A stretch of DNA of 59,146 bases, counting the filler, from Psammoneis japonica (lineage: Eukaryota), in assembly GCA_008632985.1 (NCBI GenBank). It is 2 parts of 2 records of this genome, joined end to end, with 100 filler letters (N's around TTAATTAATTAA, not from the genome) between each part and the next. Parts side by side here need not be neighbours in the genome. Positions count along the whole stretch, not along the records: positions 29,482 to 59,146 come from QPGO01000595.1; 1 more part is not named here. One strand, written 5' to 3'. How positions within the stretch are numbered: position 1 is the stretch's first letter; each line of letters begins with the position of its first letter. Positions 8,736 through 52,738 of the stretch are shown here, one piece after another. The notes under the pieces were generated by a model. The model ran no database searches and had not been told where the DNA came from. It saw only the letters and a program-made list of their open reading frames with translations. The translations under genes and the position numbers were made by a program.

Positions 8736-8744
8736 CTCCTTGGG

Positions 8745-17213: not shown

Positions 17214-17222
17214 CTCCTTGGG

Positions 17223-21446: not shown

Positions 21447-21494
21447 GGGCAAAGGTGCAACAGCACTTAAAATTGGGGTTTGGTTTTTTTTTTT
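21447..21494 (+). mobile_element. 48-bp LINE 3' end with oligo-T tail
   Basis: GGGCAAAGGTGCAACAGCACTTAAAATTGGGGTTTGG followed by a T run; nearly identical to 2118-2164. Confidence 0.75.
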
Positions 21495-24651: not shown

Positions 24652-27600
24652 TCATCCTTGATCATCACATGTGTCGTGCAGCATCACACAAACGAGGCCA
24701 TCTTGCTTGATGCCACCGCACATGATCCCAGTCGCAAGATCAGCCGGATTGCACTCCGATCTAATGTGTCCTGCAAGGGACTCACCCACAGCTGCCGACT
24801 CCCTGACAGCATGGCAGCACATGGAGTTAGACTTCTTCTTCAAAGTCGACTCTGGGCTTTGGGTGTTGTGGATGACTGACATGTTGTCCCCACAAATGCA
24901 CGATGGTCTGCTGAGCGGGACTCCCATCATCCTGAGTTTGTGCCTTGGGCCTCGCAAAGCTTCCATGCCCTGCTTCACAGCCACAAACTCAGCACCAAAG
25001 ACTGAAGTCTCGATGGCACTCTGGCGCTTGGAGAGCCAGGCAATTGATGCCATGTTCAAACAGATGAAATGACCAGTGCGAGAGCGTCTCGTCACTTTGT
25101 CATTCGCATGATCTGAGTCTACAAATGGGCGCAGATCAATGTCCTTGCCCAGAGCTTCTGGTGCATTCGGCGGAATTGCCTCCTTGGCATCCCCGCAAAA
25201 TGCCTGCCAATCACATTCCTTAAAGCCAGACATGTCGACATCCGGGTGCGTCGGATCGAACGCTGACGTGGCGTCATGTCTGTTCTTGAGGTGTCCACAC
25301 ACATGCAGGACTGCGCCGAGATGACCTTCTCTGGGCATGGCAAGGAATGAGGCAAGCTCGGACACCTCTGCTGTGAGGTTGACTCGTAAAAGTTCCACTG
25401 TCCAGCGCAGGACTCCTGCCTGCAACTGGTGAAATCGAGCCCGCTCTGCATCGAGCTTTGGTGCAATGTCGAGCTCCGGTCAACAGTCGCGCGGAAACGG
25501 AGCCGTTGCCTTGTGTGGTGACGTCCATCCGGGAGCAGACTCATCTAGATGCCCCTCGACATTTCCAACAGCCTGTTGGATGTGCTTGCTGGAGCTCATG
25601 CTCCACGCGCAGACACTGTTCGGCATTTGCACTTCACGGATCTTCACCCCGAGGTGCATCTCAGGGTCACCGATGGATCCGGGTTTCATCTTGAAGTGTC
25701 GGTCCAATTCCTTGAGCACCAATGTAGCATCGTGGTGCACCACAAGCACGTCGTCGACATGCAACAGTGCATGGGCACAGCAATGGAACCCATCATCTGG
25801 TCGAACTTGTGCCTTCATCCACACATTGGGATCAGCTGGACATGGTTCCCAACCAAGATGATGCATGCACGATGCCAAGTGGTTCCCAAAGGATGCACCT
25901 GCACTCTTCAATCCGTACAATGCGCGCTCAACTGTGGCACGCTTCCCAGCATTGGGTCCAAACTCAGGTCCTGGAGTTGTGGTGATCTTCTTGCTGTCAG
26001 GTGCAGTGATGTGGGCATTCTCAATGTCCGCAGCCTTAACCTCTGGGTCATTTAGAGCCGCTGGAGCGAAGGCAATCCTTGCACTTTCACGGGAGACGAC
26101 GCTTGCACACGTCAGGGTCGCTGGAGGTTCAGTGGCATGTCCCCCTGCAACACAACGAGCCTTCCGCTTGAAGTCTTGCAGTTTGACATCAAAGACCAAG
26201 TGGCAGCAGACACGCTGGCAACCCACAAGCTCCTCGTCATCGTCAACAATCTCAAAGGCTTTCGCAACGACTTCGATGTCCTCATCTACGGCGTCCTGCC
26301 ACAAGCGGTCGCCGTTGGCCTTGTCGATCTCGACTGCCTCTTCACAGGTCTTGGGAATGCACACCCCGCACTTGTGAGTGCGCTTGTGATGTCGCTTGTT
26401 CACAGCGGCTGTGATTTGCTGACGTTTCTTGAAGGCAAAGGGAACCCACCAGGCGAGTGCGGGTTCATCCTCTGTGGATCTAGCCCTGGCATGCTCTGCC
26501 ATTTCCACTGGGTTAGATTCCTTCAAGTCGGACAGTCGTTCCCAAGATGTGGGTCCGTCTTTCCATTGCACGCAAAGATGCCAGCCTTTGGCCGTCTTTT
26601 GCATGGATCGACGTCCTCGACTGTCTTGGATGAAGGCGTCCTCCTTCTTGACAGCATGCCCGTCAGTCTTGTGATCAACAATTGCATCTGGCAACAAGTG
26701 CTGGTTGCCTTCATTGTCACACTGTGCAAACATGTTCTCAGCGATGACATTCGCCGCGAATTCTGCTTCCTGTCCATCAGGAAACTCGACCTCACACACA
26801 CGAGTGTCAAGTGTTGGGTTTGGGTTGGCCCGTCCGGCAGGTGTGCCGTCCGGATTGAGCTTGCGTCGCTTCACTGTCCCAGTCTGTTCCATGTCCCCGT
26901 GAGGCAGCAGCACTTCTGCATTGACATGTTGATCGCAGGCTTCATCTGGCATGTCATCCTCATCGGAGGCACTGGATGGAACATCCTGTTCCTCGTCATC
27001 CTCGTGCGGTTCGAAGGTGGGAGCAATTGTGTCAGGGTCATCAAAGTCCCCGACGGTCATGCCAGGGCCTGGCTTGACCTCTGTCAACCTGTCAAACTTT
27101 TCACGTGACACCATGTGCGTCTTGTGTCCCTGCTCCTCGGGAGTCAGTGCCCTGCAAGATGAGCGATGGACTGCCTGTCCTTTCTCCTTGAGCACCCTGG
27201 CCGTCACAGCTGGGCCCACATCCCTGCTCGGACCTGGATGTCGCCCCAGGACTTCCTTGTCCTTGGGAAATGAGACTGCCGTGTCTCGAAACATGACCCA
27301 GTCGCACCAGCCTGGTTCGCATGTGTGCGAGATGTCAGCCGTCTGACCGGACACAACAGTTTCCGGGACTTCACCGTCAAGCTCATAGATGCTTCAAGCG
27401 GTGTCAGACCTGATGAGGCCTTCCAGATCCAGGCAATCATCCCACAGGCATTTTGGGGCCTGTGACTTGACCATCTTGCGCCCAACACCTCGCTTGAGTT
27501 CACGAATTGCGCCCTCTGCGGTGTCAGACCAAGGGGCACATGGTTCAGTTTGTCTTGCATGGCAATCAGCCTCCCTGGCTTTCTCACCAAACAGCCCCAT

Positions 27601-28787
27601 TGTCTCTTCTCTCGCCCCGTCCACTGGCACAGCATGGGGCATGCCTTCTTGCGCAAAGAGCAACCACAACGCCTCGTGCGCCAAACGTTTTGACTTCAAT
27701 GGATGAGCGCGTGCCCATCCATTGGACATTGCGAACACTTGCGCACACACATTCCCTCGCCTGGACTTGACAGAGGAGAACATGGCATCGGAGCACATCT
27801 CCTTTGAGATGCGCCTGCATCGCAGTTGTCGATCATTGGCACGGAAACGTCGCGACAGTGTGGGATGTAGAACCATCCTGGCTCCGCGCTGTGTCGCAAC
27901 CTTGAGAGTGTTCTGAGCATCCTTGAGGCTGATGGACCAATTCTTGGCCAAACGTTCAGCGTCAACCTTGAAGCCGCGCTTTGTCATCTTGAGCGAAGAC
28001 AGTTTCATGGATGCCAGCAGCAAACGGTCATCGTGTGCATTGGAAATGTCACGCAACGGCTGATTCCCCAGAGAGTCTGAGGTCTCTTGAGCTGCAGTGC
28101 GTGAGAGCTTTGTGCTCACAATGTGCACATGAGGACGCGCATCGTCCCCGGTCTCATGCACTCTGCCAAGAGCATCGGTCATGGCATCTTCCCCAGCGTG
28201 GAAATCAGAGGAGGCGGGGTCCCATTCCGGGGACTCATGCATGAGTTCGCACACGCTCCCATCTTGGGCCGCATCCTCGCACTGAGATGAGGTCGGGACA
28301 CTGGAGGGGAAGCAGCTCGAGACTCCCTCCAGGTCCAAAGGCACAGCCAATGAAGCCCATTTGCGTCCTTGGCACAATCGCATGTTCCTTGTCGTTGGGC
28401 TTTGTCAGTGGAAACTTCGGTTTTAATGAAAGTTCCACGTCATTCAGCCACAACTGCATTGGACACAGCAAGTCATGCTCAAGGTGTGGCACATGGACTG
28501 CTTGGTGGACAACCAAGACGTGTGGGTGGCCCGTCTGAGGATCGGCACAAGCAACAGCTCCACTGACGGTGCGCAGACGCTTGCTGGCACCCAATGTCGG
28601 GTCGCACCCTTCCATGTCTGCTGGCCTGTCATGGTCAAGTAAAATTAAAGCGTGCTTGCCTGGCACGCTTGTGTCTGCATGACTGTCGATGTCCGTGAGA
28701 CTCTTCGTTCGATGGTCCCTTGACCTTTGTCTGGGTCAAGCGCAAAGTCTGCAACGGACTGAGCCGCATGACAGCCACCATTGGCGG
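24652..28787 (-). pseudogene. pol: copia pol of element C (PR-INT-RT-RNase H), frameshifted
   Basis: IDSHADT, LLCPMQL, LHPTLSRRFRAND, AEGAIRELK, AKGWHLCVQWKDG, RKARCVAGGH, ALYGLKSAG, LLHVDD, FVDSDHA, NPADLAT. Confidence 0.95.
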
Positions 28788-29481: not shown

Positions 29482-32169
29482 GTTGTGACTCTTGCAACAT
29501 TTTTGAATGATTTCTGTTGATCTTGAATCTGCGGCAAGTCATTGTGATTTGTGACAGATTCTTTCATCAGAAACACGCATGCGTCACACACACACTCTCC
29601 ATCGTGAGTCTGTGTGTCGACCATCACTTTTTGTTTTTGCATGTGTTTGCATGTTTTGGCCCTTTGGTCTTTGATCGCACTGGTGTCAATGGGAGTCATT
29701 GTGGCTCTCAGAGTCATTGTGCAGAAATTGTGCACAAGAGCGCCAGAAACAATTGTTGCCAGTCAGTCTGCCCTTCTGTGCTCGAATGTCAACTTCTCGG
29801 GAAATCAATTGAAATGTCATCTCTCCAAAGGTGTTGCTCTTCACCATGCAAATCAAAATGCCTTTGGTCAGATGACATTTTAATTGAGCTCCCAAAAAAT
29901 CACTGGCTCCAATCACCCTCTTGCATGACACTGTGTGCATTTCTGCATGATTTGTTGTTTTTCCTTGTGTGAAATGCTGGCTGTGACTCTTGCAACATTT
30001 TTGAATGACTCCCATTGATCTTGACATCTGCGGCATTGTGACGCACTCTCCTTCATGAGTCTGCACATCAACTGCAACTTTTTGTTTTCATTTGTGTTTG
30101 TGCGATGATGAAGAGCCTGGGTGATGACAGCGTCATTTGCCGTCTTCAGGAATGAATGAATCCGAGTGCACGATGCAAAAAATTCAAAATGTTGACGTTG
30201 GCAACTGACGATCTTTGAAGGTGGGTCCAGAGGTGCATGAATGATCTGTTGTCATTTTCACACTCGCACTCGCACACTCAGCATGCACACGAATGACAAA
30301 ACGATGAGGCGAATCACGCTGGCATGTTTGGCTGTAACAACTTGCGGTTTTGAGAGAATTTTTGTGGGGTGAGAAAAGCGGCTTTGATCGCCAAAACATC
30401 ACACAACAACATGACACATCAACAGCACTTTGGACAGCTCTCTTTCAAAAGCAGAGAAGCAACAGCTCAACTTGATGTTTCTTTCTGAGTCCATGGCATC
30501 CAACTCATTTGTGGCAGCAAGCAAAGTTGAGCATCACCATGGTCAATTGAGAAAATGTTTGACACAGACTTGCAGCCTCAGCATTGTTTTTTTTGTGTTT
30601 GCCGTCAGGTGTTTTGGCATTGGCGTCTCTCCGGATGCAATTCCCCCAGTGATGGTGCATTCCCGGCATCAGACATGTGCCAAGTGACATCATGTCAAAG
30701 AGGTCCTGCAGCATCTCTTGATTGGGTGAAGTTGCAAGGTTTGTTTTGGTTGTGAACGTGTCTGCCCCTGCTTGTTCATGCCATGACACTTGACACTTGT
30801 TGATCCTCTCACAGCATCTGTTTGTTTTGGCTTGTGTCATCATCACAGCACACACACAGNNNNNNNNNNNNNNNNNNNNNNNNNNNNNNNNNNNNNNNNN
30901 NNNNNNNNNNNNNNNNNNNNNNNNNNNNNNNNNNNNNNNNNNNNNNNNNNNNNNNNNNNNNNNNNNNNNNNNNNNNNNNNNNNNNNNNNNNNNNNNNNNN
31001 NNNNNNNNNNNNNNNNNNNNNNNNNNNNNNNNNNNNNNNNNNNNNNNNNNNNNNNNNNNNNNNNNNNNNNNNNNNNNNNNNNNNNNNNNNNNNNNNNNNN
31101 NNNNNNNNNNNNNNNNNNNNNNNNNNNNNNNNNNNNNNNNNNNNNNNNNCAATTGTCTCAGAGAGAGTGAGCTGGCCTTTGCTCACCCATTCTAGACTTC
31201 AATGGCGCTGTTGTGCTGAAATGCAAGCCACCCGCAGCAGCACATGATCTGTTTTTGAGCTTGGCTCTCATTGCCTGTCATCTCCACACATCGACTCGAC
31301 TGCTTGAAATGGAAGCAGCAGAGCCCTTTGGCCGCACTGGCGTCAGACGCGCTCCAGCTCCAGGCGGGACCTGGCACTGCCGAGCTGTGAGACATCGGCA
31401 GTTTTTTGGATTGCGCTGCATGTTGCACGTGCAGAAATGTGCGAGACTTTTGTGAAATTTTGTGTCATTTTGCGGTGAGCTAATTGAGCAATCTGTCCAA
31501 CAACTTTTGACATTTTTTGTTGCAGCGCGATTCCACAACGTCTTCAAAATCACGCAGGGCAGGCACGTTTGCAAAAACGTCAAGTGGCAAGAGGCCCAAT
31601 TGCCAAATTTTTGCACTGCTGAGCTTGCGCGCACAATTCTGTGGGCCCAATGTCACACGGAGTCCCGCCCAGGACTGGAGCCCATCGTCAATGGGAGTCA
31701 TCGTGGTTCTCAGAGTCGCCGCATGGAAATTGTGCAGAAGAGCGCCAGAGACAATTGTTGTCAGTCTGTCCGCCATTCTGCACTCAAATGTCAACTTCTC
31801 GGGAAATTGACTGAAGCATCATCTGACCAAAGGTGTTGCTCTTCACCATGCAAATCAAAATGCCTTTGGTCAGATGACATTTCAGCTGAGTTCCCAAAAA
31901 ATCACTGGCTCCAATCACCCTCTCACATGGCATTGTGTGCATTTCCACCTCATGCAAAATGCTGGTTGTGACTCTTGCAACATTTTCGAATGATTTCTGT
32001 TGATCTTGAATCTGTGGCAAGTCATTGTGATTTGTGAAGGATTTTTTCGTCAGAGAAACACGCACGCACGCACTCTCCGTCGTGAGTCTGTGCGTCGACC
32101 GTCGCTTTTTGTTTTTGTCCATGTTTCCATGTTTCAGCTACGATGATGTAGAATCCGGGCAATGACAAT

Positions 32170-33740
32170 GTCCTTTGCAGTGCTGCAAATTGCCAAACAC
32201 TTGGCAAAAATGCGCGTAAACCGCCTTCGTTCGCTTCTGAAGGGAAAATTTCCATTCGTTGCGATTTTGTGCCAGAGCCACGTAGAAATGCACAGCGCTG
32301 CATCTTGCTGCTTTCCAACTCCCGCCTCCGACCTCCGACGAAGACACGGTGAAGCACGAGGATGCACCCGACAATGGCGGTGCCCATTGTCATCGATTCT
32401 GCCAATTTTCACACTCTCCCGTGTTTCATTTAACTCCAAATGGCAATGAAAGAGAGCTTTGGTGCTTTGCATTTTTTCCATTGGCGGCTTCACTCACATT
32501 CATTCTCCGTCTGCACATTTTGACATCCCAGCCAGCGCAACGCGCAGTTTTTGCTTCCATTCAGGAGCATTGCAGCTCAAGCTGTCGTTCATCAACCAAC
32601 ACTGGTGAAATTCGTTCGATTGTTGAATGCCTCGTGTTGCTGTGCACACATTTGAGGCAATGGGAGGGCAAGAAATGGCTCTTGCAAGAGCGCACAACGC
32701 GTCATGTTGCTTGACAGATGCAACAGACATGGCAGAGTTGGATGTGACCAATGAAGAGGTTGAATTTGTGGTGCACAGGAGGGTGAACATCAACTTCTCT
32801 CTGTCGGCGGAGGGAGTGACTCACTTGCAACCAATCTTGGATTAGATTCCATGCTGCTCTGGGTTGTTTGTTCAACACTGCTCTAGATTCAATGCCACTC
32901 TCTAGAGGTTGTTTGTTCAACACCACTCTAGACAAGCCACTGCTCTAGGTTCTTTGTTCAATGCTACATCAGATTCGACACTCATCTGGGTTCTTTGTTC
33001 AATGCTGCTCTGGACTCGACACTGCTCCAGCATCAATGCAATCGGATCATGCAGCGGCACTGTTGATTCTAGATTGTCTGTTTTTTTTTCTACACTGCTG
33101 GTGTCCATCCCAATGAAGATCCACACACAATGGCACAGTGCAAATGCCGTCTTCTCTTTGGGCTTGGTCGGTCTACGAGACCAGGGCTTTCCTCCGGGTG
33201 AATGACATGGCACGCCATTCCTCTTGCAATTTGCAAACTCCTCGACCGAAGTTTGCCACTCATCGAGTTTGTTCTTGTTCCTCTGTGCAATGTTTCGAAT
33301 TTAGTTTGGCTCATCCACAGAAAAATGCCCACATCCAATGCATTGACGGTGCGCCTCATCGTCCAGAAGGTGTCCGCCGACCAGAAACTTCCTGTCGCGC
33401 TCTTCGGCACACCGCACCACAACTCGGTTCCCTCAGCTCGTCGAGCATTTTATCCCTCGTGGGACCATCTACATCATCATACTCGATAGTGTCATGTGGA
33501 GTTTCGGCGTTTGATTCCCGTGCACGGACACGGTTGTGCATGGCGTTTGTTTGCCATGGTTGAAGAGTGCGAGCGGTGTCATCTGTGTTGTTTCCAAAAA
33601 ATCACGCGCGGGAAGATTGTGTACTTTTCTACGTAGGCTGGTACAATCGAGCAACGAAGAGAAATTTTCCCTTCAGAGGCGAACGAAGGAGCTTTACGCG
33701 CGTTTTTGCCAAGTGTTCAGCAATTTGTAGTATACAGGAA
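32170..33740. repeat. ~125-bp inverted repeats (32170-32295 and 33620-33740) enclosing a degenerate segment
   Basis: AAACACTTGGCAAAAATGCGCGTAAA..CCTTCGTTCGCTTCTGAAGGGAAAATTT is an imperfect reverse complement of 33660-33720. Repeated at ~47183-48752. Confidence 0.8.
32850..33030. repeat. Minisatellite of ~40-45-bp units (GGTTGTTTGTTCAACACTGCTCTAGA core)
   Basis: Core recurs at ~32862, 32907, 32948 and 32988. Reads as SRAVLNKQP-like repeats on the minus strand. Confidence 0.7.
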
Positions 33741-34122
33741 CGGATAAATCCGAATGCACGCTGCAAAGAATTCAAAATGTTGACGTCGCTTGCGGCCTGC
33801 GGCCAGCGGCCATGGCCATGGAGGTCAAGGAACGATCATATCATACAGCATTGATGTGACGATGACACCACCACTGCCAATGACCAATTGAGGCAATATC
33901 CATCGCCGTGATAGTTACTATATGGTGACGCTCCGCCTGCAAAATCTGCAGTTTCAAGTTGAGAAGCCTTCCTCGGAAACATGGTTTGCATTTTAGAATT
34001 TGTCGAAAACCTTTTCAAATGTTTCTTTTTGGCGATGATTCGAAACACGTCGTGTTTCTTCCACGATACTCTCACAACGCCCACGATACTCACAACGTCG
34101 AGACAAACGCACTGCAACAACA

Positions 34123-35252
34123 ATGGCACCAAAGACTGGAGCTCAGCGCCAGAAGGAGTACAGGGACCGACAAAATGCAAAGGGACCGGAGTTTAGAGAA
34201 AGCGAGAATCTTCGACACCGGGAACGTCGAAAGAGGGAGAATGAACTGAAGAAGGCGACTCCAGAATCCTTAGACGCGATGCAGTTGCTTCTGAAAGACC
34301 GAAAGGAGGAGCGCCAAGACCTGCTGAAGCAAGGCAAGGCCAATCGAGAGCTGTGTGCCAAAGTGGTTGCTGCGACGCCTGGCAATCTAGTGGCAGATCC
34401 GAGCAGCGACGCCTCGAAAGCAACCGGAACAGAGAGCCACGAACGTTATCACGACGAGGACTTGTCGGATGGTGAGATTCTTGAGCAGGAGCACGAACCG
34501 GTTGCTGCGACGCCTGGCAATCTAGTGACAGATCCGAGCAGCGACGCCTCGAAAGCGACCGCAACAGAGAGCCACGGACGTTATCGCGATGGGTACTTGT
34601 CGGATGGTGAGATACCCGAGCACGAACCCGCCTTGGTGGACGAAGAGGAATGCTCGGACGACGAGGAAACTAGTGTCGGAAACATTGGTGTCCCAACAAG
34701 CACTGGAGAAAGGGTACTGGATAGTTCTGCCCTTGACCGAGGAGCCTCGAAGGTCTACCTTGACTTGGACAATGATGCGGACATCTCCACGAGAGGACCG
34801 AGCTTTGCCAGGAAGCGTTCGAAAAATACGTGCCGGTAGAGAAAGAGGAAGGTCTCGGTGAAATCTTAAAACAAGTCGCAGATGACTTGGATAGGAGTGT
34901 GCTTAGGAGTCTGCGGTACATTCTAAATCATCGCAACAAGGTTCAGCATAAAAAGTGGTCGTGCCGGTTGAACAACCGTGAGTTGTACGAGAAGGAGTTG
35001 GTGTACGCCCTGGGAAAACTCTGCCCGAAATGGGAATTGATACACGACAACCCCGAAGCGCAACGTCTACGAAAAGAGCGCGATGACGCATACGCAAAGC
35101 TTGATGTTGCAGAAGCAAAGCTTGATGCTGCAGAAGCAAAGCTTGACGGCGCATACGCAGAGATTCAGCGGCTCAGGCGAGAGCGATCCGGCCGCCAATA
35201 TGATGCCGAATACTACCGACCGACAAAGCGCACCCGCCGGGATTACCATTGA
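34123..35252 (+). CDS. Hypothetical protein, copy 1 (split by a frameshift near 34800)
   Basis: ORFs 34123..34839 and 34830..35252 with normal Tyr usage. Internal 135-bp duplication, RNKVQH motif, heptad repeats. The paralog at 49135 is a single ORF. Confidence 0.6.
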
Positions 35253-35429
35253 ATGATAATTCTCTGCAGATTCATCCTCTGCAACATCGCGCTTCCGATA
35301 GGATACTACTTCTATTATAATTAACTTCTATAACTAACGTCTCTGGAAGAATCAGTTGTAATACATGTACGGTGTGCATAGAAATACTACACGAGAGTGG
35401 CTTTACGACCTACTCCTTTGAGGCATCCG

Positions 35430-35721
35430 GTTGGACACTAGGATAACACCATTTCTCCAGCCACGGCTTTATCTACTGGGTCGGTGGGAAGGAGAGACTT
35501 GTGCTGAGAAAAGGCCTCCTCGAGAAATTTTCCAATAACGGAAATCGGCTGGCACGACCGAACGACAGTGCCAGAAACACCGTCTTTGCACTCCAGCACT
35601 GGCACTGGTCCCATGGGATTAATACAAAGAAAGTCTTTGCTTTTGTTTTCGCCTTGAATGGACTTTGCGGCAAGCTGACTCGCCAAGTGCATGACGACCT
35701 CCAGTAACCGTATAGCTTGAA
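35430..35721 (-). pseudogene. Maleylacetoacetate isomerase (GST zeta) N-terminal remnant, copy 1
   Basis: FKLYGYWRSSCTWRV (zeta-class SSC motif), then frameshifted GENKSKDFLCINPMGPVPVL..KFLEE..LLPTDP. Confidence 0.8.
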
Positions 35722-35774
35722 ATCGACGGATCAGCCATCTTGCACCAGAGAGGAATCATCAGGAGTGCCGTCGG

Positions 35775-37024
35775 TTCTGGCTGGCAAAATGGTGCCTTCA
35801 CATTCACCAAAGCCCACGCGAGTTCCATCATGACGGACACATTGTCCATTCATTATTACGGCATCACAGTCTATCATTTGCGCACTTTGTCACCCATTCC
35901 ATGGCACCCTTCCACCTCAATTCGAGCGCACTGCCATAGTATCACGGTTATGTTCCAGAGATGGTTCCACTCCCCATCAACTCGCCTGCTTGCATCACGT
36001 AACCCGTTACCGAATGATGCATAAGTTGTCGAGCAGCGTTCCAATGCATGTGCTTCAAGTTGGATCGATCAACCCCTGTGGGCTCTGACTGGTCAAAAGC
36101 CTTTACTCCAACCGATACTTTGGCATCAAATGAATTGAGGGCTGGGTCTTGGAGATAGGGTAGCGGCATTGGATCGACTTGCTCTGGTTCAGCCGAACTG
36201 ATGGCACGAAAGTCATCAAGAGCGTTCATGGTGACAATCCACGGAGAAATAGTAGTGGCAAAATTCTTCGCCGTAAAGGGACCCAACGGAACATATTCCC
36301 ACTTTTGAACATCTCGCCGACCAATCATTCATGGGACATATCCAAAGATGCGATCGTTGGCTTGTTCGAGTGACATGGGAGCCGTAATGGCAGGTCCGCC
36401 AACTACCGCTGCCTCATCCAATTCATAATCCAGCAGTCGGCAAGGACCATAGATGCTGCCTTGTTTGGGATCGTCCCTGTCTGTTTGCAGCTGTCCAGAT
36501 GGACGATGAGCGGGCTTTCCCCAAAGAAATTTAGTGGGTGACCGTCCGTAATAACCGACGGGTAAATGCAGCCAATCGGGCTGCACGGCGTTTTCCTCGC
36601 CACGAAACATGATACCCAAACTCGTTGCATGCTTTCGGCTTGAATAAAAGTCGGTATATTCGCCCACAATGATAGGCATACCCTTTTCTACTCTTTCAAC
36701 AGGGTACAAAGCTGCTTGCTGAAGCTTTCTGTTTGTAGCAAGTCGATTGTCAGTACCCGTCAAGAGATTCAAAAGAGGTTCTCGGGTGACCGTCCACACT
36801 GGTTATGGGTGTCGCAGAAACGAATTGAGCATTGGCTTTGTAAAGACATTGGGACCTAGATTGGGAATACCAACCAAGAGTCCCGCTTCTTACAAGACTT
36901 GTCAACCGTGTCACCGGCAAATATCGTATGAAATAGCACATCTTTGTAGTTTCGAGCAAAGTGACACCACACCAAAAGGTAAAAAGTCCAAGTCTTAGCG
37001 AACCGGCAACCACGACGACGCCAT
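35775..37024 (-). pseudogene. FAH: Fumarylacetoacetase pseudogene, copy 1
   Basis: MASSWLPV..LPFGV; GEYTDFYSSRKHAT..GIMFRG..WLHLPVGY; MNDWSAR/DVQKWEYVPLGPF; HHSVTG..GSGTISG; RVGFGECEG. Several stops and frameshifts are shared by both copies. Confidence 0.9.
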
Positions 37025-37728
37025 TGTCGACAAGAGAACGATGAATACGAAAATCTTGCGTCTTTCCAGGACAACTTCTGTTAAGCAATCAAAGATGATC
37101 ATGATGGTTGTTGCTGTAAGTAGTGTCAGAATCTTTTGTTTTTGTTCAGACCGGAAAATGACTTGCTTTTCAGAGAGAACCGTCACATCATCGCCCAATG
37201 ACACCACAACATACTGTAGTCCATGCGCGGTAATTACGTTTCCGGTGTATATGCTTGCAGCTGTGGTCGTTCTTGATAGTGCTGAAGGAGTTCCGCGTTC
37301 CGCCGCATGCTCGGGTGTGTTGTATTCCGCCTCGAGCAACGCATTCATCGACGACAGCACCAGCGGTAGGGATTGCAAGCATGCGGTCTATTGTCTTGTC
37401 TAGTCTTGAGCGTTTAACAAGTCGTCGTCATGAAAGGACCAATCGTTGTTATCGTTGCTATGTTGAGTAGTGTCGTTTTGTTTCCCAGAGAGGTGTTGTA
37501 GTTGCAGGTTGATGCATGACTTCTGCTTCTGCTTTGATTGCGATTCTCTGTCAAGAGACTGTCGTCATCGAACGACCATGCATCGAGTCTTCGTCGTTGT
37601 TGTCGTCAAGGGTGGGTGGAAAGCAAGTCATCTACGTCATCGTTCCAACTGTCTCCTAGCGACGCCATGGTGACAGCGAGAGAGCGAGCGAGGGTTCTGT
37701 CAGTGACGGTCTGTCACCGTCGGGTTGT

Positions 37729-37841
37729 GAGCATCACGTGCGCACGTGACGAGCGTCCCGTGCGCACGTGTCGAGCGTCCCGTGCGCACGTGTCGAGCGT
37801 CCCGTGCGCACGTGTCGGGGTCTGTCACGTGCGCACGTGAC
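37729..37841. repeat. 22-bp tandem repeat (4 units) plus a perfect 18-bp palindrome GTCACGTGCGCACGTGAC
   Basis: Units of GAGCGTCCCGTGCGCACGTGTC start at 37729 (variant), 37751, 37773 and 37795. Palindrome at 37824-37841. Confidence 0.9.
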
Positions 37842-37845
37842 GGTC

Positions 37846-40800
37846 TTAAGGGGGACCGCCGACCTATTTTTTCCGCGTTTATCCTAAAATTAGCAATGTG
37901 TTTGAATGCGTTTATTCATAATTGTCAATTTTAAATGCAAGAGTTGTTCGATCGCCCACGAAAACGAGAACATCAGGCACCGCGATCGAAGCACGACGAT
38001 GACGGCAATTGCGCTGTCTCTCAAAATTGGCCCAGTGGCACGAGGGACGAAAGCACACAAATCAATCTGAACTGCATGACGACAATGAAGCCAATGAGTG
38101 TCCCTCGTGAGGTGGCACTTTGCAGCTCACCGCTCGTCGCGAACATCGTCATTGTCGCTCGTCCTTTTGTCGTGTTGTTTTCTGTCGCGACCCGTCAAAA
38201 ATGTGTAAAAACCCGGAAAAGACATGCAAAAAAAAAGAGCCGACGGCCCGCCTTAAAAGATCGCAAAGAAAAAAAGAAAGGCTCATGTTGGCACAAACAT
38301 TGTGTGTGCTGGATGTTCGCGCACTTTTCCATGCTGGCACAAAAAAAGCACCCCTGCGAAGCCAGCAGCGCAGCTTTGAATTGCTCTGTGAGCTGCTGCA
38401 AGACAGAGCTTGGCTTGGTTTTGCCCATTTGGGGATTCCCCAAAATGGCAAGGGGGGCGTGCTCCAGCTCTGGGTGGGACCTCGCACCACTGAGCTGTGG
38501 CACAATTGTTTTTTGTCATCCGTCGCATGTTTCGCACGTGCATTTCTGCGTGTTCCATCACAAAAAATTGTCCCACACTGCCTGATTTGCGAAGCCAAAC
38601 GCTTTCTGTCATCTGCGCTTGTGCCAACAAAAGACGCAACTGTGACATCGACAGTTTTTTGAATCGCGTCGCATGTTGCGCACGTAGATTTCTGCGTGGT
38701 TTTTGCGACATTTTGTGTCATTTTACGGTGCACTTGTTGAGCGATCCGTCCAGCAACTTTTGACATTTTTTGTTGCAGCGCGATTCTATGATGTCTTAAG
38801 AATCGCGCAGGGTGGGCGCTTTGCAAAAACGTTGAGTGTCAAGTGGCACAATTGCAGACGCGTTCCAGGTCTGGGTGGGACCTCGTGCTGCTGAACTGTG
38901 ACATCGACAGTTTTTTGAATCGCGCCGCATGTCGCGCACGTGCATTTCTACGTGATTTTGGCAAAATTTTGCATCATTTATAGCGCAATCATCAGGCGAT
39001 CCATTCAACAACTTTTAACATTTTTTTCTTCTACGCCATTCTCGAGTGTCTTAAGAATGGCGCAGGGCAGGTGCATTGTCCAAAACTTTGAGTGCAAACA
39101 GAGACACATGTGCTGCAAACTTGGCCATTTGTTTCATGTCGAAGACAAATGTGTCCATCAACCAGAGTACGAACCACAGAGCTCGCAGGCAGAATTCTGC
39201 GGGGCAAATGTCACAAAAAGCCCCACCTGGGACTGGAACCCATCTGCACCACAAACTTGGCCGTTCATTTGATGTTGAAGATGAACACACCCGTTGATTA
39301 AATTCTCGTGCTGCGGAGCTCGCACATGAATTCTGCGGGCCGAATGTCACACGGAGTCCCACCCAGGGCTGGAACGCATCAAAAGTGCGCTGGGCATGTT
39401 CTTTGATGTCCAAAGAACACACCCGGGCATGCTGCAAAGAATGCACTTCAAGTGTGGAGGAGGAGACACGCTTGCAAAATTGCCTCTTTTTCTGTGGCGA
39501 TCATTCGCACAACCATTGCTTGACAATTTTTCTGCGAGCTCGCACGCAGAATTCTGCGGGCCCAACATCACAAAAAGTCCCACTTGGGGCTGGAACCCAT
39601 CAATGGCAAGGGGGAGCTGCCTTGGCCTTTTGGGGAACACCCGGGAAATGAGGGTGATTTGGCGGGAAGGAACGGCTGAAAGGGGTCAGGGGAAGGAACA
39701 AAAAATGAGTGCAGCGCGGCAGCTCCCGCCTTGTTTTGTGTGGGCGGGTGTGCTTTTTGCCACATTCAACCAGAAAGCCGCGCTCTGCCGCCGCCGACCA
39801 TGATGGATGCATCGACAAATCGACACAAAGCGGCCCCTCATGGTGCAGCAAAGGAAGAATGAACTTCGCCATTGAATCACACACATCGACGTTGCTCATG
39901 TGCGGCTCTGTTTTTGCCTTGGCATTTGCTCTGGAGCCGCTGTGGCTTGCATTTGTGACCGCGCGACACAAGAGGGGAAAAATGACACACCGCATTCTGC
40001 ACATTAGACAGGTCAAAGGGAAGAAGAAACATCGTCAATCAATCAGCCACATTTTTGTCAACCACGCGCGACTCCACTTTTGCCTTGTCCTTCACACTGG
40101 ACGCCTCGTGGCTTGCCTTTCTGAGTGCACGACAAAAGAGTGATCTGAGCAACTCCCTTCATTCTGCACACAAGATGTGCAAATTGGAAGAATGAGAGTG
40201 ACCATTCAATCCACCACATTGTTGTTGTTGGCCATGTGTGGCTCTGCTTTTGCCCTGGCCTTTGCCACATGCTTTGTGGCTTGCATTTGTGGCTGCACAA
40301 CAAAAAAACAACTGACGCCCAACGATCAATTGCGCTGGTGTTCTGCACATGTGCAACCACATTTCATCTTGTGTTTTGTGCCATGGATCCCGTTCAATCA
40401 ATGTTGTCGAATGCATTGAGCGGCGTCGTGATTGACGGGCAACAGCCATCACAAATGGGACGCGAGCGCGCCATGGCGTGTTGCCCATTTTTGTTGTGGT
40501 CGGTCGATTGTCTGGCTCATGCGTGGAACGCGCAGAAATGCATGAGAGGGAAAGCACGGGGAATTTCCAATGCACCATTTTTCATTCACGCATTGAGGGC
40601 ACATGTGACGAACGGCAATTCGCGGCGATTCTCCGGGAACTCACCCTTCCCGCGGAAAAACAGGGTGAAAGGTGGCAGCCCCGGGGAATTTTGAGAAAAT
40701 GCACGGCAAAACCAAACTGAGAGACAGAGCAGTCTGGCCGTCAGCTTTCTTGGTTGACCAGCCTTTGACCCCCCCCTGTTGACCAACAACTTTGATGGTG

Positions 40801-43800
40801 GAAATGACCCCTTGGCTCAAGCTTGGCTTCTCGCCAAAATCGTTGGCTTTGCCGTCAAGGGTGTTGAAGGTGTCGCAGCCCCTGGTGTGTTGGCAAGGGG
40901 ACTGCGGCTGATGGGCTCCAGCCCTGGGTGGGACTTTTTGTGACGCTGGGCCCGCAGAATTCTGCACGCAAGCTCTGCAGCAAAATTGTGCAGCAATGAA
41001 CATGCCAACAATCGCCAACAGAAAAAGAGGCAATTTTGCGAACGCACCTCGTCCTCCTCCACACTTGAAGCACATTCTTTGCAGCATGCCCGGGTGTGTT
41101 CTTCAGTCATTGAAGAGCGCACCCACCAGCGTGCTTTTGTTGCCAAAATGACAGCAACAGAAGATTGGGCATGTGGGGCTCTGCCACACATCATTGTGAG
41201 TGAGAAATGGGATTTTTGAGTCAGAGCGGCGTGTGAGTCATCAACCCTCTGTTTCAAGAAACGAGGGTGTGTGGCTGCAGCGGGAGCTCCATCCAGCCCA
41301 AGCCCAAGAAATGCATGGTTCTCAGGCCTGGACCCAGAGCAACTTCAAGTGGTTTTTGAAGGCAAAATTCCCAAATGATCTGCGCATGCAACATCTGAAT
41401 GGATTGCTCCAACAAACAGAAGATGGTCACATGAACATGTCAGCTGCAACAAAAGTTGGGGCCACAGTGCAAAAGCCACTTTTGTCTCACATGAAGTGCT
41501 TGCAGACAGGGCTGCTGCTGGTGGCAGGAGCATGAAGCATCAAACAATGTTGCTCAAGCTCAATTTGTTGTTGTGTGCGTTGATTGAATTTTCTCACTGG
41601 AAGGGCCCAAGTCACGCTGCTGAGACAAAAAAAGTGCTGGGATTGTGCGAAGAGGATGACACTGATGATGCACGTGCTGAAGCTTTTTTGATCTTGAGGC
41701 TTTTCTGCCCAAGGCTTGGGATCAGCTCTGGCAACAAACAGCAAACTCCAGGCCTTTCTTGCATCATGAAAAAGGTTTGCATTGCTGGGTCAAGGCGCCA
41801 CTTGGTCAGCTCTCCATCATTGCACGTGCGTCAGATGTGTCAGAATGCTGTCCTCCAGCGCAAAAGACAACTCTGCCTCCCATGCCATTGACTGCAAATT
41901 GGCCAAAGGATGGGACACCTTGGCACTTGGATGTTTCTTTTGTCAGCTGGAATGGCGGGAAAGCAACAAACATTGGGAATCCACACCACATTTGAGTTTG
42001 TCACAATCCAAAAAACTTGAAATGTGACCCCAGCGACTTGGGCACTTGAGGGGCGGTGTTGTCATGGTGGGGTCAAAATGAAAAAGCTGGGTGCCTCAGC
42101 ATTTTTTTTGTTTTGGAACAAACTTGGAACAAGCAGCTCAAGAGGTGCACTTGTGAGCCTGCTGGGGGCTGCCACACATGTCCCACAGTGTCTGGCACTT
42201 GGCCACCCAGTGGGCTTCTTGATGCGGGGCCGACATTGCTGTCATTGAAATGTTGGTCAATGGGAGTGACTTGTGGAATTGTTGAAGTGCATTGCCAAGG
42301 GAAACAAACAGAGTTGTGTTGCAAGTGAAAACAACAAAGAACCCATTTTTGACATCCTCTTTCCAGGCCGCTGGGATTCTTTGTCATGGAACACCTTGAA
42401 AAGCTGCTTGCTTGCCAAGTTGATGTTCTTGTTGCACCAGTGCTTTGTCGTGCTTGGGCACACTCAATTCCTCTGTGTCAAAAAACTTCACCATGTTTCT
42501 TGATTCCTGCGTCAATTTGGCAAGATGATGTTCATTCTCTCGCTTTTGCTTTTTCAATGGCGGCACATGAAAGTGCTGGTGACTGTTGCAGCTTTCTGCC
42601 AGCTGAACATTTGCAACTAAATCAGATTCTTTGAGTGATTGTCGCGCCTTTGCCGCTCCATCCAGAGCCATCTCACCAGCTCTCTTGGGTTTTGCCACAA
42701 AAGAAAAAAAGTCAAAAGGAGGTGGCAAGTGGTGCCAACAGCACAATGCCACAGAAACACACAATCAACACACATTGCATGCACAAATCATCAAGCTGTG
42801 CATGCCAGACAACTCTTTCAGCAGGGTTGCTTTCAAGCTGCGGGCTGTCTGCCTGCATGTTGGACATCCCAGAAAACAATGTCCGCTGTGTGGATCAAGA
42901 ACATTGGATGCAAACAATGTGCGACTGAGCAAGCAATGCAACTTTGGGCACAAGATGAGTGCAAATGATCCTCTCTCCACTTCTCTGCTCAACTCTCGCC
43001 ACAGCAATTTTCTTGGAAACTCTCATCCATCCAGTCATCTGCTGCCCCGCTGCAACATCAATTTGGCTGACATTGAAGAAAATGAGAAAAGAAGCTGCAG
43101 CTGATGAGAGCACAAAAGAGCCCAAGTTGCGGAGTTGTTTTTAAGTGCGTCACCAAGGGAAACAAACAGAGTTGTGTTGGGAGTGAAGACAACAAAGAGC
43201 CCATTTTTGACGTCCTTTTCCCAGGCCGCTGGGCTTCTTTGTCACAGAACACCTTGAAAAGCTGCTTGCTTGCCAAGTTGATGTTCTTGTTGCACCAGTG
43301 CTTTGTTGTGCTTGGGCACACTCAACTCCTTTGTGTCAAAAAACTTCGCCATGTTTCTTGGTTCCTGTGTCAATTTGGCAAGATGATGTTCATTCTCTTG
43401 CTTTTGCTTTTTTTCAATGGCGGTGGCACATGAAAGTGCTGGTGTCTGTTGCAGCTTTCCAGCCAAACATTCGCAACTAAATCAGATTCTTTGAGTGCTT
43501 GTTGTGCCTTTGCCTCTCCATCCAGAACCATCTCACCAGTTCTCTTGGGTTTTGCTGCAAAAGAAAAAAGTTAAAAGGAGGTGGCAAGTGGTGCCAACAG
43601 CACAATGCCACAGAAACACACAATCAAAGCACGTTGCATGCACGAATCATCAAGCTTTGCATGCCAGGCAACTCTTTCAGCAGGACTGCCATCAAGCTGC
43701 GGGCCATCTGCCTGCACACTGGACAACCCAGAAAACAATGTCTGCTGTGTGGATCAAGAACATTGGGTGCAAACAATGTGAGACTGAGCAAGCAATGCAA

Positions 43801-46800
43801 CTTTGGGCACAAGACAAGATGAGCACAAATGATCCTCTCCACTTCTCTGCTCAGCTCTCACCACAGCAATTTTCTTGGAAACTCTCATCCATCCAGTCAT
43901 CTGCTGCCCCACTGCAATGTCAATTTGCTGACATTGAAGAAAACAAGAAAAGAAGCTGCAGCTGATGAGAACACAAAAGAGCCCAAGGGGAGTCAAACAA
44001 CACACCACATTGCTCACACAAGATGCACTTGCACTCAGTTTGGTGCCCCAAATGTCACACAATTTTGATTGAAGAGCAGCCAGAGGGATTGGCTCCTCTT
44101 TTTAAGAGGAGCTGCCCTGTGGCCAGTGGCGAGCTGCACTTCATTCATTGTCATTTTGTGTTTGGCATGCAAGTGCTTGCAATGGAAGCAGCAGAGCCCT
44201 TCGGTCTTTGGTTGCACTGGCATCAATGGGAGTCATTGCGGCTCTCAGAGTCGCTGCACAGAAACTGTGCAAAAGAGCACCAGAAACAATCGCTGCCAGT
44301 CTGTCCACCCTTCCACACTCAAGTGTCGACTTCTCAGGAAATCAATTGAAATGTCATCTCTCCAAAGGTGTTGCTCTTCACCATGCAAGTCAAAATGCCT
44401 TTGGTCAGATGACATTTCAGCTGAGTTCCTGAAAAGTCACTGGCTCCAACCACCCTCTCGCGTGACATTGTGCGCATTTCCACCTCGTGCAAAATGCTGG
44501 TTGTGACTCTTGCAACATTTTTGAATGATTTCTGTTGATCTTGAATCTGCGGCAAGTCATTGTGATTTGTGACAGATTCTTTCATCAGAAACACGCATGC
44601 GCACACACACACTCTCCATCGTGAGTCTGTGTGTCGACCATCACTTTTTGTTTTTGCATGTGTTTGCATGTTTTGGCCCTTTGGTCTTTGATCGCACTGG
44701 TGTCAATGGGAGTCATTGTGGCTCTCAGAGTCATTGTGCAGAAATTGTGCACAAGAGCGCCAGAAACAATTGTTGCCAGTCAGTCTGCCCTTCTGTGCTC
44801 GAATGTCAACTTCTCGGGAAATCAATTGAAATGTCATCTCTCCAAAGGTGTTGCTCTTCACCATGCAAATCAAAATGCCTTTGGTCAGATGACATTTTAA
44901 TTGAGCTCCCAAAAAATCACTGGCTCCAATCACCCTCTTGCATGACACTGTGTGCATTTCTGCATGATTTGTTGTTTTTCCTTGTGTGAAATGCTGGCTG
45001 TGACTCTTGCAACATTTTTGAATGACTCCCATTGATCTTGACATCTGCGGCATTGTGACGCACTCTCCTTCATGAGTCTGCACATCAACTGCAACTTTTT
45101 GTTTTCATTTGTGTTTGTGCGATGATGAAGAGCCTGGGTGATGACAGCGTCATTTGCCGTCTTCAGGAATGAATGAATCCGAGTGCACGATGCAAAAAAT
45201 TCAAAATGTTGACGTTGGCAACTGACGATCTTTGAAGGTGGGTCCAGAGGTGCATGAATGATCTGTTGTCATTTCACACTCGCACTCGCACACTCAGCAT
45301 GCACACGAATGACAAAACGATGAGGCGAATCACGCTGGCATGTTTGGCTGTAACAACTTGCGGTTTTGAGAGAATTTTTGTGGGGTGAGAAAAGCGGCTT
45401 TGATCGCCAAACATCACACAACAACATGACACATCAACAGCACTTTGGACAGCTCTCTTTCAAAAGCAGAGAAGCAACAGCTCAACTTGATGTTTCTTTC
45501 TGAGTCCATGGCATCCAACTCATTGGTGGCAGCAAGCAAAGTTGAGCATCACCATGGTCAATTGAGAAAATGTTTGACACAGACTTGCAGCCTCAGCATT
45601 GTTTTTTTTGTGTTTGCCGTCAGGTGTTTTGGCATTGGCGTCTCTCCGGATGCAATTCCCCCAGTGATGGTGCATTCCCGGCATCAGACATGTGCCAAGT
45701 GACATCATGTCAAAGAGGTCCTGCAGCATCTCTTGATTGGGTGAAGTTGCAAGGTTTGTTTTGGTTGTGAACGTGTCTGCCCCTGCTTGTTCATGCCATG
45801 ACACTTGACACTTGTTGATCCTCTCACAGCATCTGTTTGTTTTGGCTTGTGTCATCATCACAGCACACACACAGAAAGCCAACGCAGCCAAATGGGCTTT
45901 CTTGTGTCTCTGACGTCAGCGCAGTTGCATGGCATGTGTTGCTTTGGAGCTCGCCCATCTCCGAATTTTTGTTGGCTCATCTCCATGTTGTCAACAGGGG
46001 CAACAATGATGGTGACAAGTGGCGGCAACTGCGCTTCCACTCCATGCAGTCATCCTGCTCAGCCCAAGCAGCTCACAGACAGCACCGCTGGCTTTTTGGT
46101 GAGAGGTGAGCTTCTGGTCTCTCATCAGTTTCGCGCCCCATTGGCCAAGCTGCTCTTGTTCTTGCAATTGTCTCAGAGAGTGAGCTGGCCTTTGCTCACC
46201 CATTCTAGACTTCAATGGCGCTGTTGTGCTGAAATGCAAGCCACCCGCAGCAGCACATGATCTGTTTTTGAGCTTGGCTCTCATTGCCTGTCATCTCCAC
46301 ACATCGACTCGACTGCTTGAAATGGAAGCAGCAGAGCCCTTTGGCCGCACTGGCGTCAGACGCGCTCCAGCTCCAGGCGGGACCTGGCACTGCCGAGCTG
46401 TGAGACATCGGCAGTTTTTTGGATTGCGCTGCATGTTGCACGTGCAGAAATGTGCGAGACTTTTGTGAAATTTTGTGTCATTTTGCGGTGAGCTAATTGA
46501 GCAATCTGTCCAACAACTTTTGACATTTTTTGTTGCAGCGCGATTCCACAACGTCTTCAAAATCACGCAGGGCAGGCACGTTTGCAAAAACGTCAAGTGG
46601 CAAGAGGCCCAATTGCCAAATTTTTGCACTGCTGAGCTTGCGCGCACAATTCTGTGGGCCCAATGTCACACGGAGTCCCGCCCAGGACTGGAGCCCATCG
46701 TCAATGGGAGTCATCGTGGTTCTCAGAGTCGCCGCATGGAAATTGTGCAGAAGAGCGCCAGAGACAATTGTTGTCAGTCTGTCCGCCATTCTGCACTCAA

Positions 46801-48790: not shown

Positions 48791-49134
48791 GTTGACGTCG
48801 CTTGCGGCCTGCGGCCAGCGGCCATGGCCATGGAGGTCAAGGAACGATCATATCATACAGCATTGATGTGACGATGACACCACCACTGCCAATGACCAAT
48901 TGAGGCAATATCCATCGCCGTGATAGTTACTATATGGTGACGCTCCGCCTGCAAAATCTGCAGTTTCAAGTTGAGAAGCCTTCCTCGGAAACATGGTTTG
49001 CATTTTAGAATTTGTCGAAAACCTTTTCAAATGTTTCTTTTTGGCGATGATTCGAAACACGTCGTGTTTCTTCCACGATACTCTCACAACGCCCACGATA
49101 CTCACAACGTCGAGACAAACGCACTGCAACAACA

Positions 49135-50268: not shown

Positions 50269-50439
50269 ATGATAATTCTCTGCAGATTCATCCTCTGCAA
50301 CATCGCGCTTCCGATAGGATACTACTTCTATTATAATTAACTTCTATAACTAACGTCTCTGGAAGAATCAGCTGTAATACATGTATGCATAGAAATACTA
50401 CACGAGAGTGGCTTTAGCGACCTACTCCTTTGAGGCATC

Positions 50440-52035: not shown

Positions 52036-52738
52036 TGTCGACAAGAGAACGATGAATACGAAAATCTTGCGTCTTTCCAGGACAACTTCTGTTAAGCAAT
52101 CAAAGATGATCATGATGGTTGTTGCTGTAAGTAGTGTCAGAATCTTTGTTTTTGTTCAGACCGGAAAATGACTTGCTTTTCAGAGAGAACCGTCACATCA
52201 TCGCCCAATGACACCACAACATACTGTAGTCCATGCGCGGTAATTACGTTTCCGGTGTATATGCTTGCAGCTGTGGTCGTTCTTGATAGTGCTGAAGGAG
52301 TTCCGCGTTCCGCCGCATGCTCGGGTGTGTTGTATTCCGCCTCGAGCAACGCATTCATCGACGACAGCACCAGCGGTAGGGATTGCAAGCATGCGGTCTA
52401 TTGTCTTGTCTAGTCTTGAGCGTTTAACAAGTCGTCGTCATGAAAGGACCAATCGTTGTTATCGTTGCTATGTTGAGTAGTGTCGTTTTGTTTCCCAGAG
52501 AGGTGTTGTAGTTGCAGGTTGATGCATGACTTCTGCTTCTGCTTTGATTGCGATTCTCTGTCAAGAGACTGTCGTCATCGAACGACCATGCATCGAGTCT
52601 TCGTCGTTGTTGTCGTCAAGGGTGGGTGGAAAGCAAGTCATCTACGTCATCGTTCCAACTGTCTCCTAGCGACGCCATGGTGACAGCGAGAGAGCGAGCG
52701 AGGGTTCTGTCAGTGACGGTCTGTCACCGTCGGGTTGT

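Follow-up and report, generated by a model that had tools for sequence, protein, structure and literature searches.

How does a short piece of DNA keep an ordinary number of TA dinucleotides when the sequence on both sides of it has lost nearly all of them? The question is raised by a 59,146-nucleotide stretch of the Psammoneis japonica genome assembly GCA_008632985.1 (hereafter the window), which consists of two parts joined by filler, the second of which (positions 29,482 to 59,146) comes from QPGO01000595.1. We report that this second part carries two copies of a TA-retaining island within TA-poor transposon relics and other repeats, and our data suggest, with a probability that we put at roughly 70%, that the island lies outside targeted domains and that the flanking repeats have been hit in place by a directed TpA hypermutation acting on both strands.

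The base composition of the window is approximately 50% GC, and its dinucleotide usage is strongly biased. In 500-bp windows the observed-to-expected ratio (o/e) of TpA is 0-0.2 nearly everywhere and 0.27-1.0 in the island, and the mean o/e of CpA and TpG is 1.4-1.9 in most windows and higher next to the N gaps. Two TA-bearing stretches are seen at this resolution, 33.5-38.0 kb and 48.5-53.0 kb. Island copy 1 (33450-37940) has a TpA o/e of 0.57, corresponding to 35.6 TA per kb, with CA at 1.16, TG at 1.18 and CpG at 1.10, and copy 2 (48462-52950, the start being approximate), at an offset of about +15010, has the same composition. In six flanking blocks the TA o/e is 0.05-0.09, with CA at 1.59-1.83 and TG at 1.48-1.71; over all flanks CA (1.5-1.83) and TG (1.36-1.71) are raised irrespective of the orientation of the copia elements, and in most flanks CpG o/e is 0.45-0.77 compared to 1.10 in the island. 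Block 1-2000 has a TA o/e of 0.16. The tetranucleotide RTAY (R, purine; Y, pyrimidine) occurs 10.7 times per kb in the island versus 0.09-0.20 outside, and just 8 such sites are present in the whole window outside the two islands. The TA-retaining island among TA-poor flanks is real and well above chance. This agrees with the first-pass annotation, made from the sequence alone, which had described TA as common at 33.5-37.9 and 48.5-52.9 kb; the three strings that it quoted are located at 33727, 33916 and 35312, and again approximately 15 kb downstream. At three places, 1-2000, 32001-32500 and 38501-39000, TA o/e is 0.1-0.2 although CpG o/e is still 1.0-1.4, and since TA can be purged where CpG is intact, the process that removes TA reaches saturation much earlier than CpG decay does and is not necessarily dependent on it.

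Aligned paralogues show how TA was lost. Three long open reading frames (ORFs) match the copia reverse transcriptase RVT_2, with bit scores slightly over the Pfam threshold, and three copia relics are recognised: relic A, with RVT_2 (6578-13609, plus strand, TpA o/e about 0.08), relic B (15089-21452, plus strand, 90-92% identical to A) and a third one (25480-28383, minus strand). When paralogous copies are aligned, CA stands opposite TG at 70 sites in one copia pair (pair A; 140 of the 306 substitutions) and at 40 sites in pair B, giving 110 such doubles between relics A and B, and at 10 sites in two tandem units of approximately 860 bp (42271-43987), which are TA-free and 90% identical; any other adjacent double difference is found at most five times. 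A site with CA opposite TG is what remains when the two copies of an ancestral TA are converted by separate events that affect opposite strands. Under a two-lineage model, which takes CA and TG to be equally frequent outcomes and all sites to be alike, TA density at the copia split was 39.0 and 37.2 per kb, versus 35.6 in the island today, and 94-96% of the TAs were converted per lineage. The same model gives, indirectly and from fixed differences, a TA conversion 500, 293 and 197 times as fast, in the three paralogue pairs, as substitution at sites that are in neither a TA nor a CpG context. The pairs also contain 104, 57 and 17 sites where CG is opposed to TG or CA, and CpG decay is a second, separate process on top of the TA loss.

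Conversion is also seen in the predicted proteins. Where Tyr is present in 70% or more of 20 relatives, it is replaced by His or Cys in the three copia ORFs in 14 of 16, 16 of 21 and 13 of 17 cases, which is 43 of 54 overall, and as 23 of these are His and 20 Cys, both strands were affected equally. Conserved Tyr is kept at five of six positions in the fumarylacetoacetase (FAH) reading frame of the island, in line with the first-pass annotation that Tyr codons are intact there. Likewise, CA and TG o/e are 1.66 and 1.54 in plus-strand copia and 1.63 and 1.48 in minus-strand copia. The symmetric outcomes, together with the conversion of the 860-bp units and of non-transposon DNA, point to an action on DNA in place and not on sense RNA or on one strand of a cDNA.

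These data bear on the possibility that the signature arose at the RNA level, i.e. that transposon transcripts were subjected to ADAR-like A-to-I editing which was fixed by reverse transcription and reinsertion. ADARs prefer a G on the 3' side of the edited A, and here a pyrimidine is preferred after the target. Moreover, editing predicts only TA-to-TG changes on the sense strand, in conflict with the symmetry of CA/TG o/e and of His versus Cys, and TA is missing as well from the 860-bp tandem units and from DNA that lacks transposon homology. It is true that the best-recognised targets in the window are retrotransposons and that ADAR-type enzymes favour U before the edited A, as noted in a recent preprint (10.64898/2026.01.13.699255). 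Still, we consider RNA-level editing highly improbable.

Not all TAs outside the island have been lost to the same extent. We measured TA survival relative to island density in two partitions, 1-29380 and the flanks in the 15-kb unit that carries the island (see below), on the assumption that the context mix of the island approximates that of unconverted transposons. Survival is 0.47 and 0.39, respectively, for YTAR (CTAA, CTAG, TTAA and TTAG), 0.10 and 0.08 for sites where one strand reads T-A-Y, and 0.019 and 0.009 for RTAY, which reads T-A-Y on both strands; the context mix differs from that of the island with p = 2e-14 and 4e-8 (chi-square). Independent hits on each strand, with a survival of approximately 0.66 for T-A-purine and 0.135 for T-A-pyrimidine, reproduce the three classes as 0.44, 0.09 and 0.018. 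The data fit the adenine in T-A-pyrimidine as the target, with T-A-Y being roughly five times more mutable. The gains in products agree with this rule, TGC (17.8 per kb) and TGT (15.8) exceeding TGG (11.3) and TGA (9.5), and a separation of the effect of position -2 from that of +1 by means of product tetranucleotides is only suggestive.

The same context rule can be written for the other base of the pair. If T in TpA were modified in silenced DNA (for example by an oxidation of the 5-hydroxymethyluracil type) and then misread or misrepaired as C, the symmetric CA/TG excess would fit T-to-C as well as it fits A-to-G, and the T-A-Y rule would amount, on the complementary strand, to a purine preceding the modified T. 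The literature searched documents no such system in diatoms, and the authors of the sole described case of the signature attribute it, tentatively, to adenine deamination. A thymine-directed agent is for these reasons an unlikely explanation.

What, then, does the island contain? A pseudogene on the minus strand (35280-37033) corresponds to a fusion of FAH with a GST-zeta/maleylacetoacetate isomerase (MAAI), and it aligns without introns to residues 1 to approximately 646 of fusion proteins of about 670 amino acids, the FAH and isomerase domains sharing one reading frame. It has at least eight in-frame stops (TAA and TGA) as well as deletions of the -1 and -2 type ten codons apart, all common to both island copies, in accordance with the first-pass annotation. 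The FAH-MAAI gene is dead, and the stops and deletions imply that it has evolved for a long time without constraint. Convergent to it, on the plus strand, lies an ORF without an assigned family (34123-35252), which has an internal 135-bp tandem repeat and is split by a frameshift in copy 1. The copy-2 version (49135-50268) is intact and encodes 377 amino acids; it has 34 relatives in a representative library (best E value 4.9e-31), a Pfam domain was found in none of 12 relatives, and the ESM Atlas gave no usable match. The densest TA stretch in the island, 35200-35400 with 20 TAs, is non-coding and situated between the 3' ends of the convergent genes.

Could selection keep TA in the island while unconstrained DNA drifts TA-free? 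Part of the island may function, given the relatives of the 377-amino-acid ORF and its intact state in copy 2. However, the dead FAH-MAAI gene, with its five of six Tyr and its normal TA content, retains TAs, and selection is consequently not the cause; the densest TA stretch lies between gene ends, and ordinary TA is also present in sequence that flanks other copies of the repeat starting at 37847, as seen in the loose ends of contigs. Selection can hardly be the explanation, and the annotation was right to regard TA retention as not selective.

With respect to the origin of the island, FAH-GST fusions make up 37 of 45 longer relatives, and the five named ones are all from diatoms: FAH and GST domains are both present in Fistulifera solaris (61% identity), Seminavis robusta, Amphora coffeiformis and Skeletonema menzelii, and the fifth is of Skeletonema type with a partial domain set. 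The island is most likely ordinary diatom-type gene space, with two putative convergent units each having 0.7-0.9 kb of upstream sequence. Scans of the window with Rfam and for tRNA genes gave no hits, and a spliced-leader motif had no match in the window with up to three mismatches. A dinoflagellate reading, with 5-hydroxymethyluracil at TpA and spliced-leader relics beside retrocopies, was dropped in view of the absence of spliced-leader matches and the diatom-type homologues.

The first-pass annotation had proposed that TA fades over some distance into the flanking repeats. This is not what we find. For TAs that read T-A-Y on one strand or both, maximum likelihood placed the change points at 33450 and 48455 on the left (likelihood ratio 34.5) and at 37500 and 52510 on the right (likelihood ratio 63-67), the last TA with a T-A-Y strand being at 37919. 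The borders are steps, 150-270 bp wide, at 33302-33451 and 37932-38206, and a step in TpA o/e at the borders, the absence of which the annotation itself had named as one way to refute its claim, is present. On the left, the flank 32000-33449 has 15 residual TAs, none in the most sensitive contexts, a class that accounts for 56-67% of the TAs inside the island; nine have one of the best-surviving contexts (CTAG, TTAG, TTAA and GTAA) and six read CTAC or GTAG, and six of the 15 lie in or beside a tandem repeat of 41-45 bp that carries CTAG (32854-33023). Given that no sensitive TA is left in 32000-33450, this flank has been fully exposed, and the leftovers reflect sequence context and not a fading shield.

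On the right, TAs, sensitive ones included, run to 37932, and the next TA is at 38206. Seven contigs (four in contig set X1 and three in X2) match the window rightward from 37845-37873 and carry different sequence leftward, which places the end of a repeat at about 37846/7. This high-copy repeat (37847-40500, the right limit being approximate) abuts the island; no terminal inverted repeat or target-site duplication partner was found for it. Its first approximately 90 bp keep 7-8 unconverted TAs and then there are none. The residual TAs reported near 38.9-39.3 kb do exist, as 11 TAs at 38685-39168, four of them in sensitive contexts, but they form a separate patch in units of a very high-copy family and not the tail of a gradient. 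The most suitable reading of the patch is that of younger copies, converted in part. On the inner side of the right border and close to it, upstream of FAH-MAAI, is a CpG-rich 22-bp tandem repeat (37729-37839, 4.9 copies).

Nowhere in the window is it clearer that similar sequence has a different fate inside and outside a border than in an inverted repeat whose arms are 1.3 kb apart. The arm inside the island (33620-33730) has nine intact TAs, and in its partner outside (32183-32294) six or seven of the nine read TG or CA; the two surviving in both arms are GTAA and GTAG. Retention is accordingly positional, as had been suggested. The word "protection" that was used for it is less apt: normal TA is the default, the flanks carry an added, directed mutation, and the island is better described as not targeted.

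A positional pattern would also result if host DNA had moved in between repeats that were already converted, after hypermutation had stopped. In favour of this, no repeat end can be recognised at the left border, and near-identical island copies testify to recent rearrangement at the locus. Against such a late arrival, the repeat has a genuine end at 37846/7, other copies have other neighbours there, and copies begin at 37-39 TA per kb; since new copies start with normal TA, the copy in the window would have been converted when it was already beside the island. FAH-MAAI, with at least eight stops and two deletions, has long been unconstrained, and the inverted-repeat arms differ mainly at TA sites. 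The timing of the repeat, which bears on the right junction, and the decay of the pseudogene argue against a late arrival, which we regard as rather improbable.

The island owes its two copies to a tandem duplication. Self-comparison resolves two copies of a unit of approximately 15 kb, 29482-44499 and 44500-59146, with the junction at 44499/44500 and the unit ends in members of one repeat family. The copies differ by 99 substitutions and 39 indel events, and the differences are clustered, with one substitution in 35000-38000, 21 in 34000-35000, 30 in 38000-39000 and 28 in 39000-40000. That the island copies differ by one substitution in 35000-38000 makes the duplication very recent, and a real, very recent unequal exchange is a plausible origin. 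Only one TA/TG difference is found among approximately 160 TAs in the island copies, and the duplication is too recent to have power on whether copy number is a trigger.

Two regions depart from the general similarity of the copies. Segment 38204-40468 is approximately 3% diverged from 53214-55122, neighbouring sequence being nearly identical, and copy 1 has about 390 additional bases at 38856-39245. In the 38.2-40.5 kb region the copies show six TG-versus-CA doubles, many CpG changes and approximately 1% differences of other types. Post-duplication hypermutation was considered here and not used as evidence, as a mixing of paralogues (by ectopic conversion or polishing) is as likely; the region was set aside because of the approximately 1% ordinary differences and the very high copy number of the family. 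Segment 34144-34910 has 25 differences to 49156-49926, many of them transversions outside TA and CpG contexts, in two short tracts, and in about a dozen places in 34144-34910 the X1 contigs show only the copy-2 letter. These differences may stem from a faulty assembly of copy 1 or from conversion by another member of the family.

Might the whole pattern be an artefact, through an assembly chimera, a contaminant or a systematic error in calling TA in repeats? The window contains runs of N, and 33 of the 39 indel events are of one base, which is suggestive of long-read error; neither 33.4 kb nor 37.85 kb was shown to be spanned by any of the contigs listed, and this is not evidence either way. 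The gap-free stretch 31150-56907, however, contains the duplication junction and spans both islands, the independently built X1 and X2 contigs reproduce island and flanks, and sequence of diatom type occurs outside the island (copia) as well as within it (FAH-MAAI). A calling error would in addition yield neither CA and TG opposed at the same site nor a multiplicative context rule, and we find an artefact exceedingly improbable.

Contigs of three DNA runs were placed on 31150-45500. Summed contig depth, which hints at repeat families and is not a copy number, is about 150-200 in the island (34024-37376), 118-240 in 41209-44082, 550-650 in 32108-34023, 3,900-6,700 in 31150-32107 and 14,000-38,000 in 38335-39771. 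The CpG-rich segment 37377-37855, in which the 22-bp tandem repeat lies, has a summed depth of approximately 15, versus 150-200 on the island side. Sensitive TAs are kept in 33450-34000, where depth is approximately 3-4 times that of the rest of the island. Among 112 ORFs of at least 75 amino acids in the 15-kb unit there is no convincing Pfam match except FAH. The 860-bp units have a CpG o/e of 0.1-0.4 and no recognisable coding homology.

The pol ORF of the third copia relic is 53-59% identical to many metagenomic, diatom-type copia proteins, and among the 120 matches listed the four named ones are all from Fragilaria crotonensis. The 448-bp repeats at 13351 and 14641 were tried as long terminal repeats for dating and rejected, being in fact the 3' part of the pol region. 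None of 80 related copia loci from metagenome contigs has a TA o/e below 0.3 (minimum 0.45, median 0.69), and the TA purge is therefore not general to this transposon family. Three of these loci (L010, L011 and L060) have a CpG o/e of 0.01-0.10, CA/TG of approximately 1.5-1.6 and a TA o/e of approximately 0.45, and they represent heavy methylation decay without a TA purge. Outside the islands, the loss of TAA and TAG is accompanied by long open frames on both strands, e.g. overlapping ORFs of 245-750 amino acids at 11424-13745 and 17787-19862. As converted transposons lose TAA and TAG stops as well as Tyr, they acquire long false ORFs with weak homology (Pfam scores near the threshold), and gene callers would report false genes in such TA-purged transposons.

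We now return to the reading that the island escaped a directed TpA hypermutation of its surroundings. In this scheme the island would be ordinary host DNA with two convergent transcription units, one of the genes being dead, and transposons and repeats would be hit in place, TpA becoming TpG or CpA (A:T to G:C) on both DNA strands with the adenine in 5'-T-A-pyrimidine-3' as the preferred target and ordinary CpG-methylation decay superimposed. The TAs of the island would be kept through lying outside the targeted domains, not by selection or a shield, and the borders of these domains are the steps of 150-270 bp, at or near repeat ends. Of this scheme, the signature with its strand symmetry, its independent occurrence in paralogous copies, the context rule, the steps and the death of the gene are shown. 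The agent would be a TadA/ADAT-type deaminase that acts on adenine in DNA and is brought to transposon heterochromatin, as has been suggested for the chlorarachniophyte Bigelowiella natans, and the border would be set by active-gene chromatin.

Several observations weigh against this reading. The left border is inside a region of uniform contig depth (about 550-650, 32108-34023) with no visible repeat end, and the right step is approximately 90 bp within the repeat and not at its end. Segment 41209-44082 is TA-free at an island-like contig depth and without recognisable transposon homology, and hence "transposon" is not the sole possible definition of the target. The assignment to a diatom is drawn solely from named homologues at 53-61% identity. 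Finally, as an A-to-G change on one strand is indistinguishable from T-to-C on the opposite one, an agent that modifies thymine would fit just as well.

The locus constitutes a natural targeting experiment, in that a dead gene, a spacer and one repeat arm escape, and the other arm and the adjacent repeat are saturated. Since the dead gene, the spacer and the arm escape, the guide can be neither selection nor simple sequence homology, and a domain of chromatin type, with edges like steps, becomes the leading candidate; that the TA retention of the island has a chromatin basis is a reasonable inference. The borders at 33.3-33.45 kb and 37.85-38.2 kb provide precise sites for overlaying methylation, histone marks and small RNAs. 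A bolder proposal, which we put forward tentatively and at somewhat less than even odds, is that a diatom runs the same "reverse-RIP" defence as B. natans, with T-A-Y on both strands of double-stranded transposon DNA rewritten in place by a deaminase-type activity, at several hundred times the background rate, and with domain edges one to two nucleosomes wide that would be set by neighbouring gene chromatin and by neither sequence, copy number nor coding function.

Repeat-induced point mutation (RIP) of ascomycetes, a genome defence by mutation and the functional analogue of the present process, converts CpA to TpA, makes DNA AT-rich and is triggered by duplication. Common to RIP and the locus studied here are transposons riddled with one class of transition in a dinucleotide context, ruined ORFs and unique neighbours that are largely spared. 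In contrast to RIP, TpA is destroyed here, CpA and TpG are gained and the DNA becomes richer in GC; in addition, segment 33450-34000 keeps its TAs at approximately 3-4 times island depth, and so does the duplicated island. The first-pass annotation had set the locus apart from RIP on the ground that two copies alone had not triggered conversion. The distinction holds, by virtue of the opposite direction and of segment 33450-34000, but the argument from the duplication is nearly powerless. In ADAR hyper-editing, double-stranded RNA derived from animal repeats is edited from A to inosine, which is read as G, with U/T favoured before the target, and the edits are heritable only via retrotransposition of the edited sense strand. 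At this locus, unlike in such editing, both DNA strands are changed equally and DNA that is not retroelement-derived is affected; ADAR-type editing is excluded by the strand symmetry. In diatoms, CpG-methylation decay of silenced transposons has reportedly been documented, for example in methylome and histone-mark studies of Phaeodactylum tricornutum. The CpG deficit and the CG-versus-TG/CA differences between paralogues in the flanks match such decay, by which the CA/TG excess is explained only in part and the TA loss not at all.

The remaining system is that of B. natans; a phenomenon of this kind was first described in 2026 and has, in the literature searched, been described once, for one alga. 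According to the preprint, 231 of 302 mutations in mutation-accumulation lines fell in two integrated viral regions, almost all of them A-to-G or T-to-C and all at TpA, with a rate of approximately 6e-7 per site per generation versus 3.5e-10 elsewhere; the excess over baseline is given as about 1000-fold (Mettrop et al., 10.64898/2026.01.13.699255). The same text reports 124 TpA-poor, CpA/TpG-rich clusters which, together with coding sequences for reverse transcriptase and DDE, mark older events genome-wide, and proposes an ADAT2-like deaminase as candidate (10.64898/2026.01.13.699255).

Judged against that description, the two systems have in common the A:T to G:C change at TpA, with TpG or CpA as the product according to the strand hit, the confinement to blocks of foreign or mobile DNA with neighbouring host DNA at baseline, and the enrichment of TpA-poor DNA in reverse-transcriptase coding sequence (in B. 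natans also DDE). They differ in host, a rhizarian in the one case and a probable diatom (Stramenopiles) in the other, and in targets, viral inserts in B. natans versus copia relics and repeats here. The rate is a further point of agreement, at approximately 1000 times baseline in the preprint, measured de novo, and approximately 300-500 times here, inferred from fixed differences. The two differ in saturation, which reaches an o/e of 0.05 here versus a Rho of 0.45 for the nucleocytoplasmic large DNA virus region of B. natans. The B. natans process is described as acting on a region present in one copy, which rules out copy number as the trigger there. The main text of the preprint mentions neither copia nor boundaries (10.64898/2026.01.13.699255), and the T-A-pyrimidine rule, the step borders round an island with a pseudogene and the accompanying CpG decay are likewise not part of that text. 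Our locus thus adds a probable second and distant host lineage for targeted TpA hypermutation, as well as a sequence rule for the agent, the adenine of T-A-pyrimidine with the strands hit independently. Should a "reverse-RIP" indeed operate in diatoms, TpA hypermutation would be an old and possibly widespread eukaryotic defence in the lineages of Stramenopiles, Alveolata and Rhizaria (SAR).

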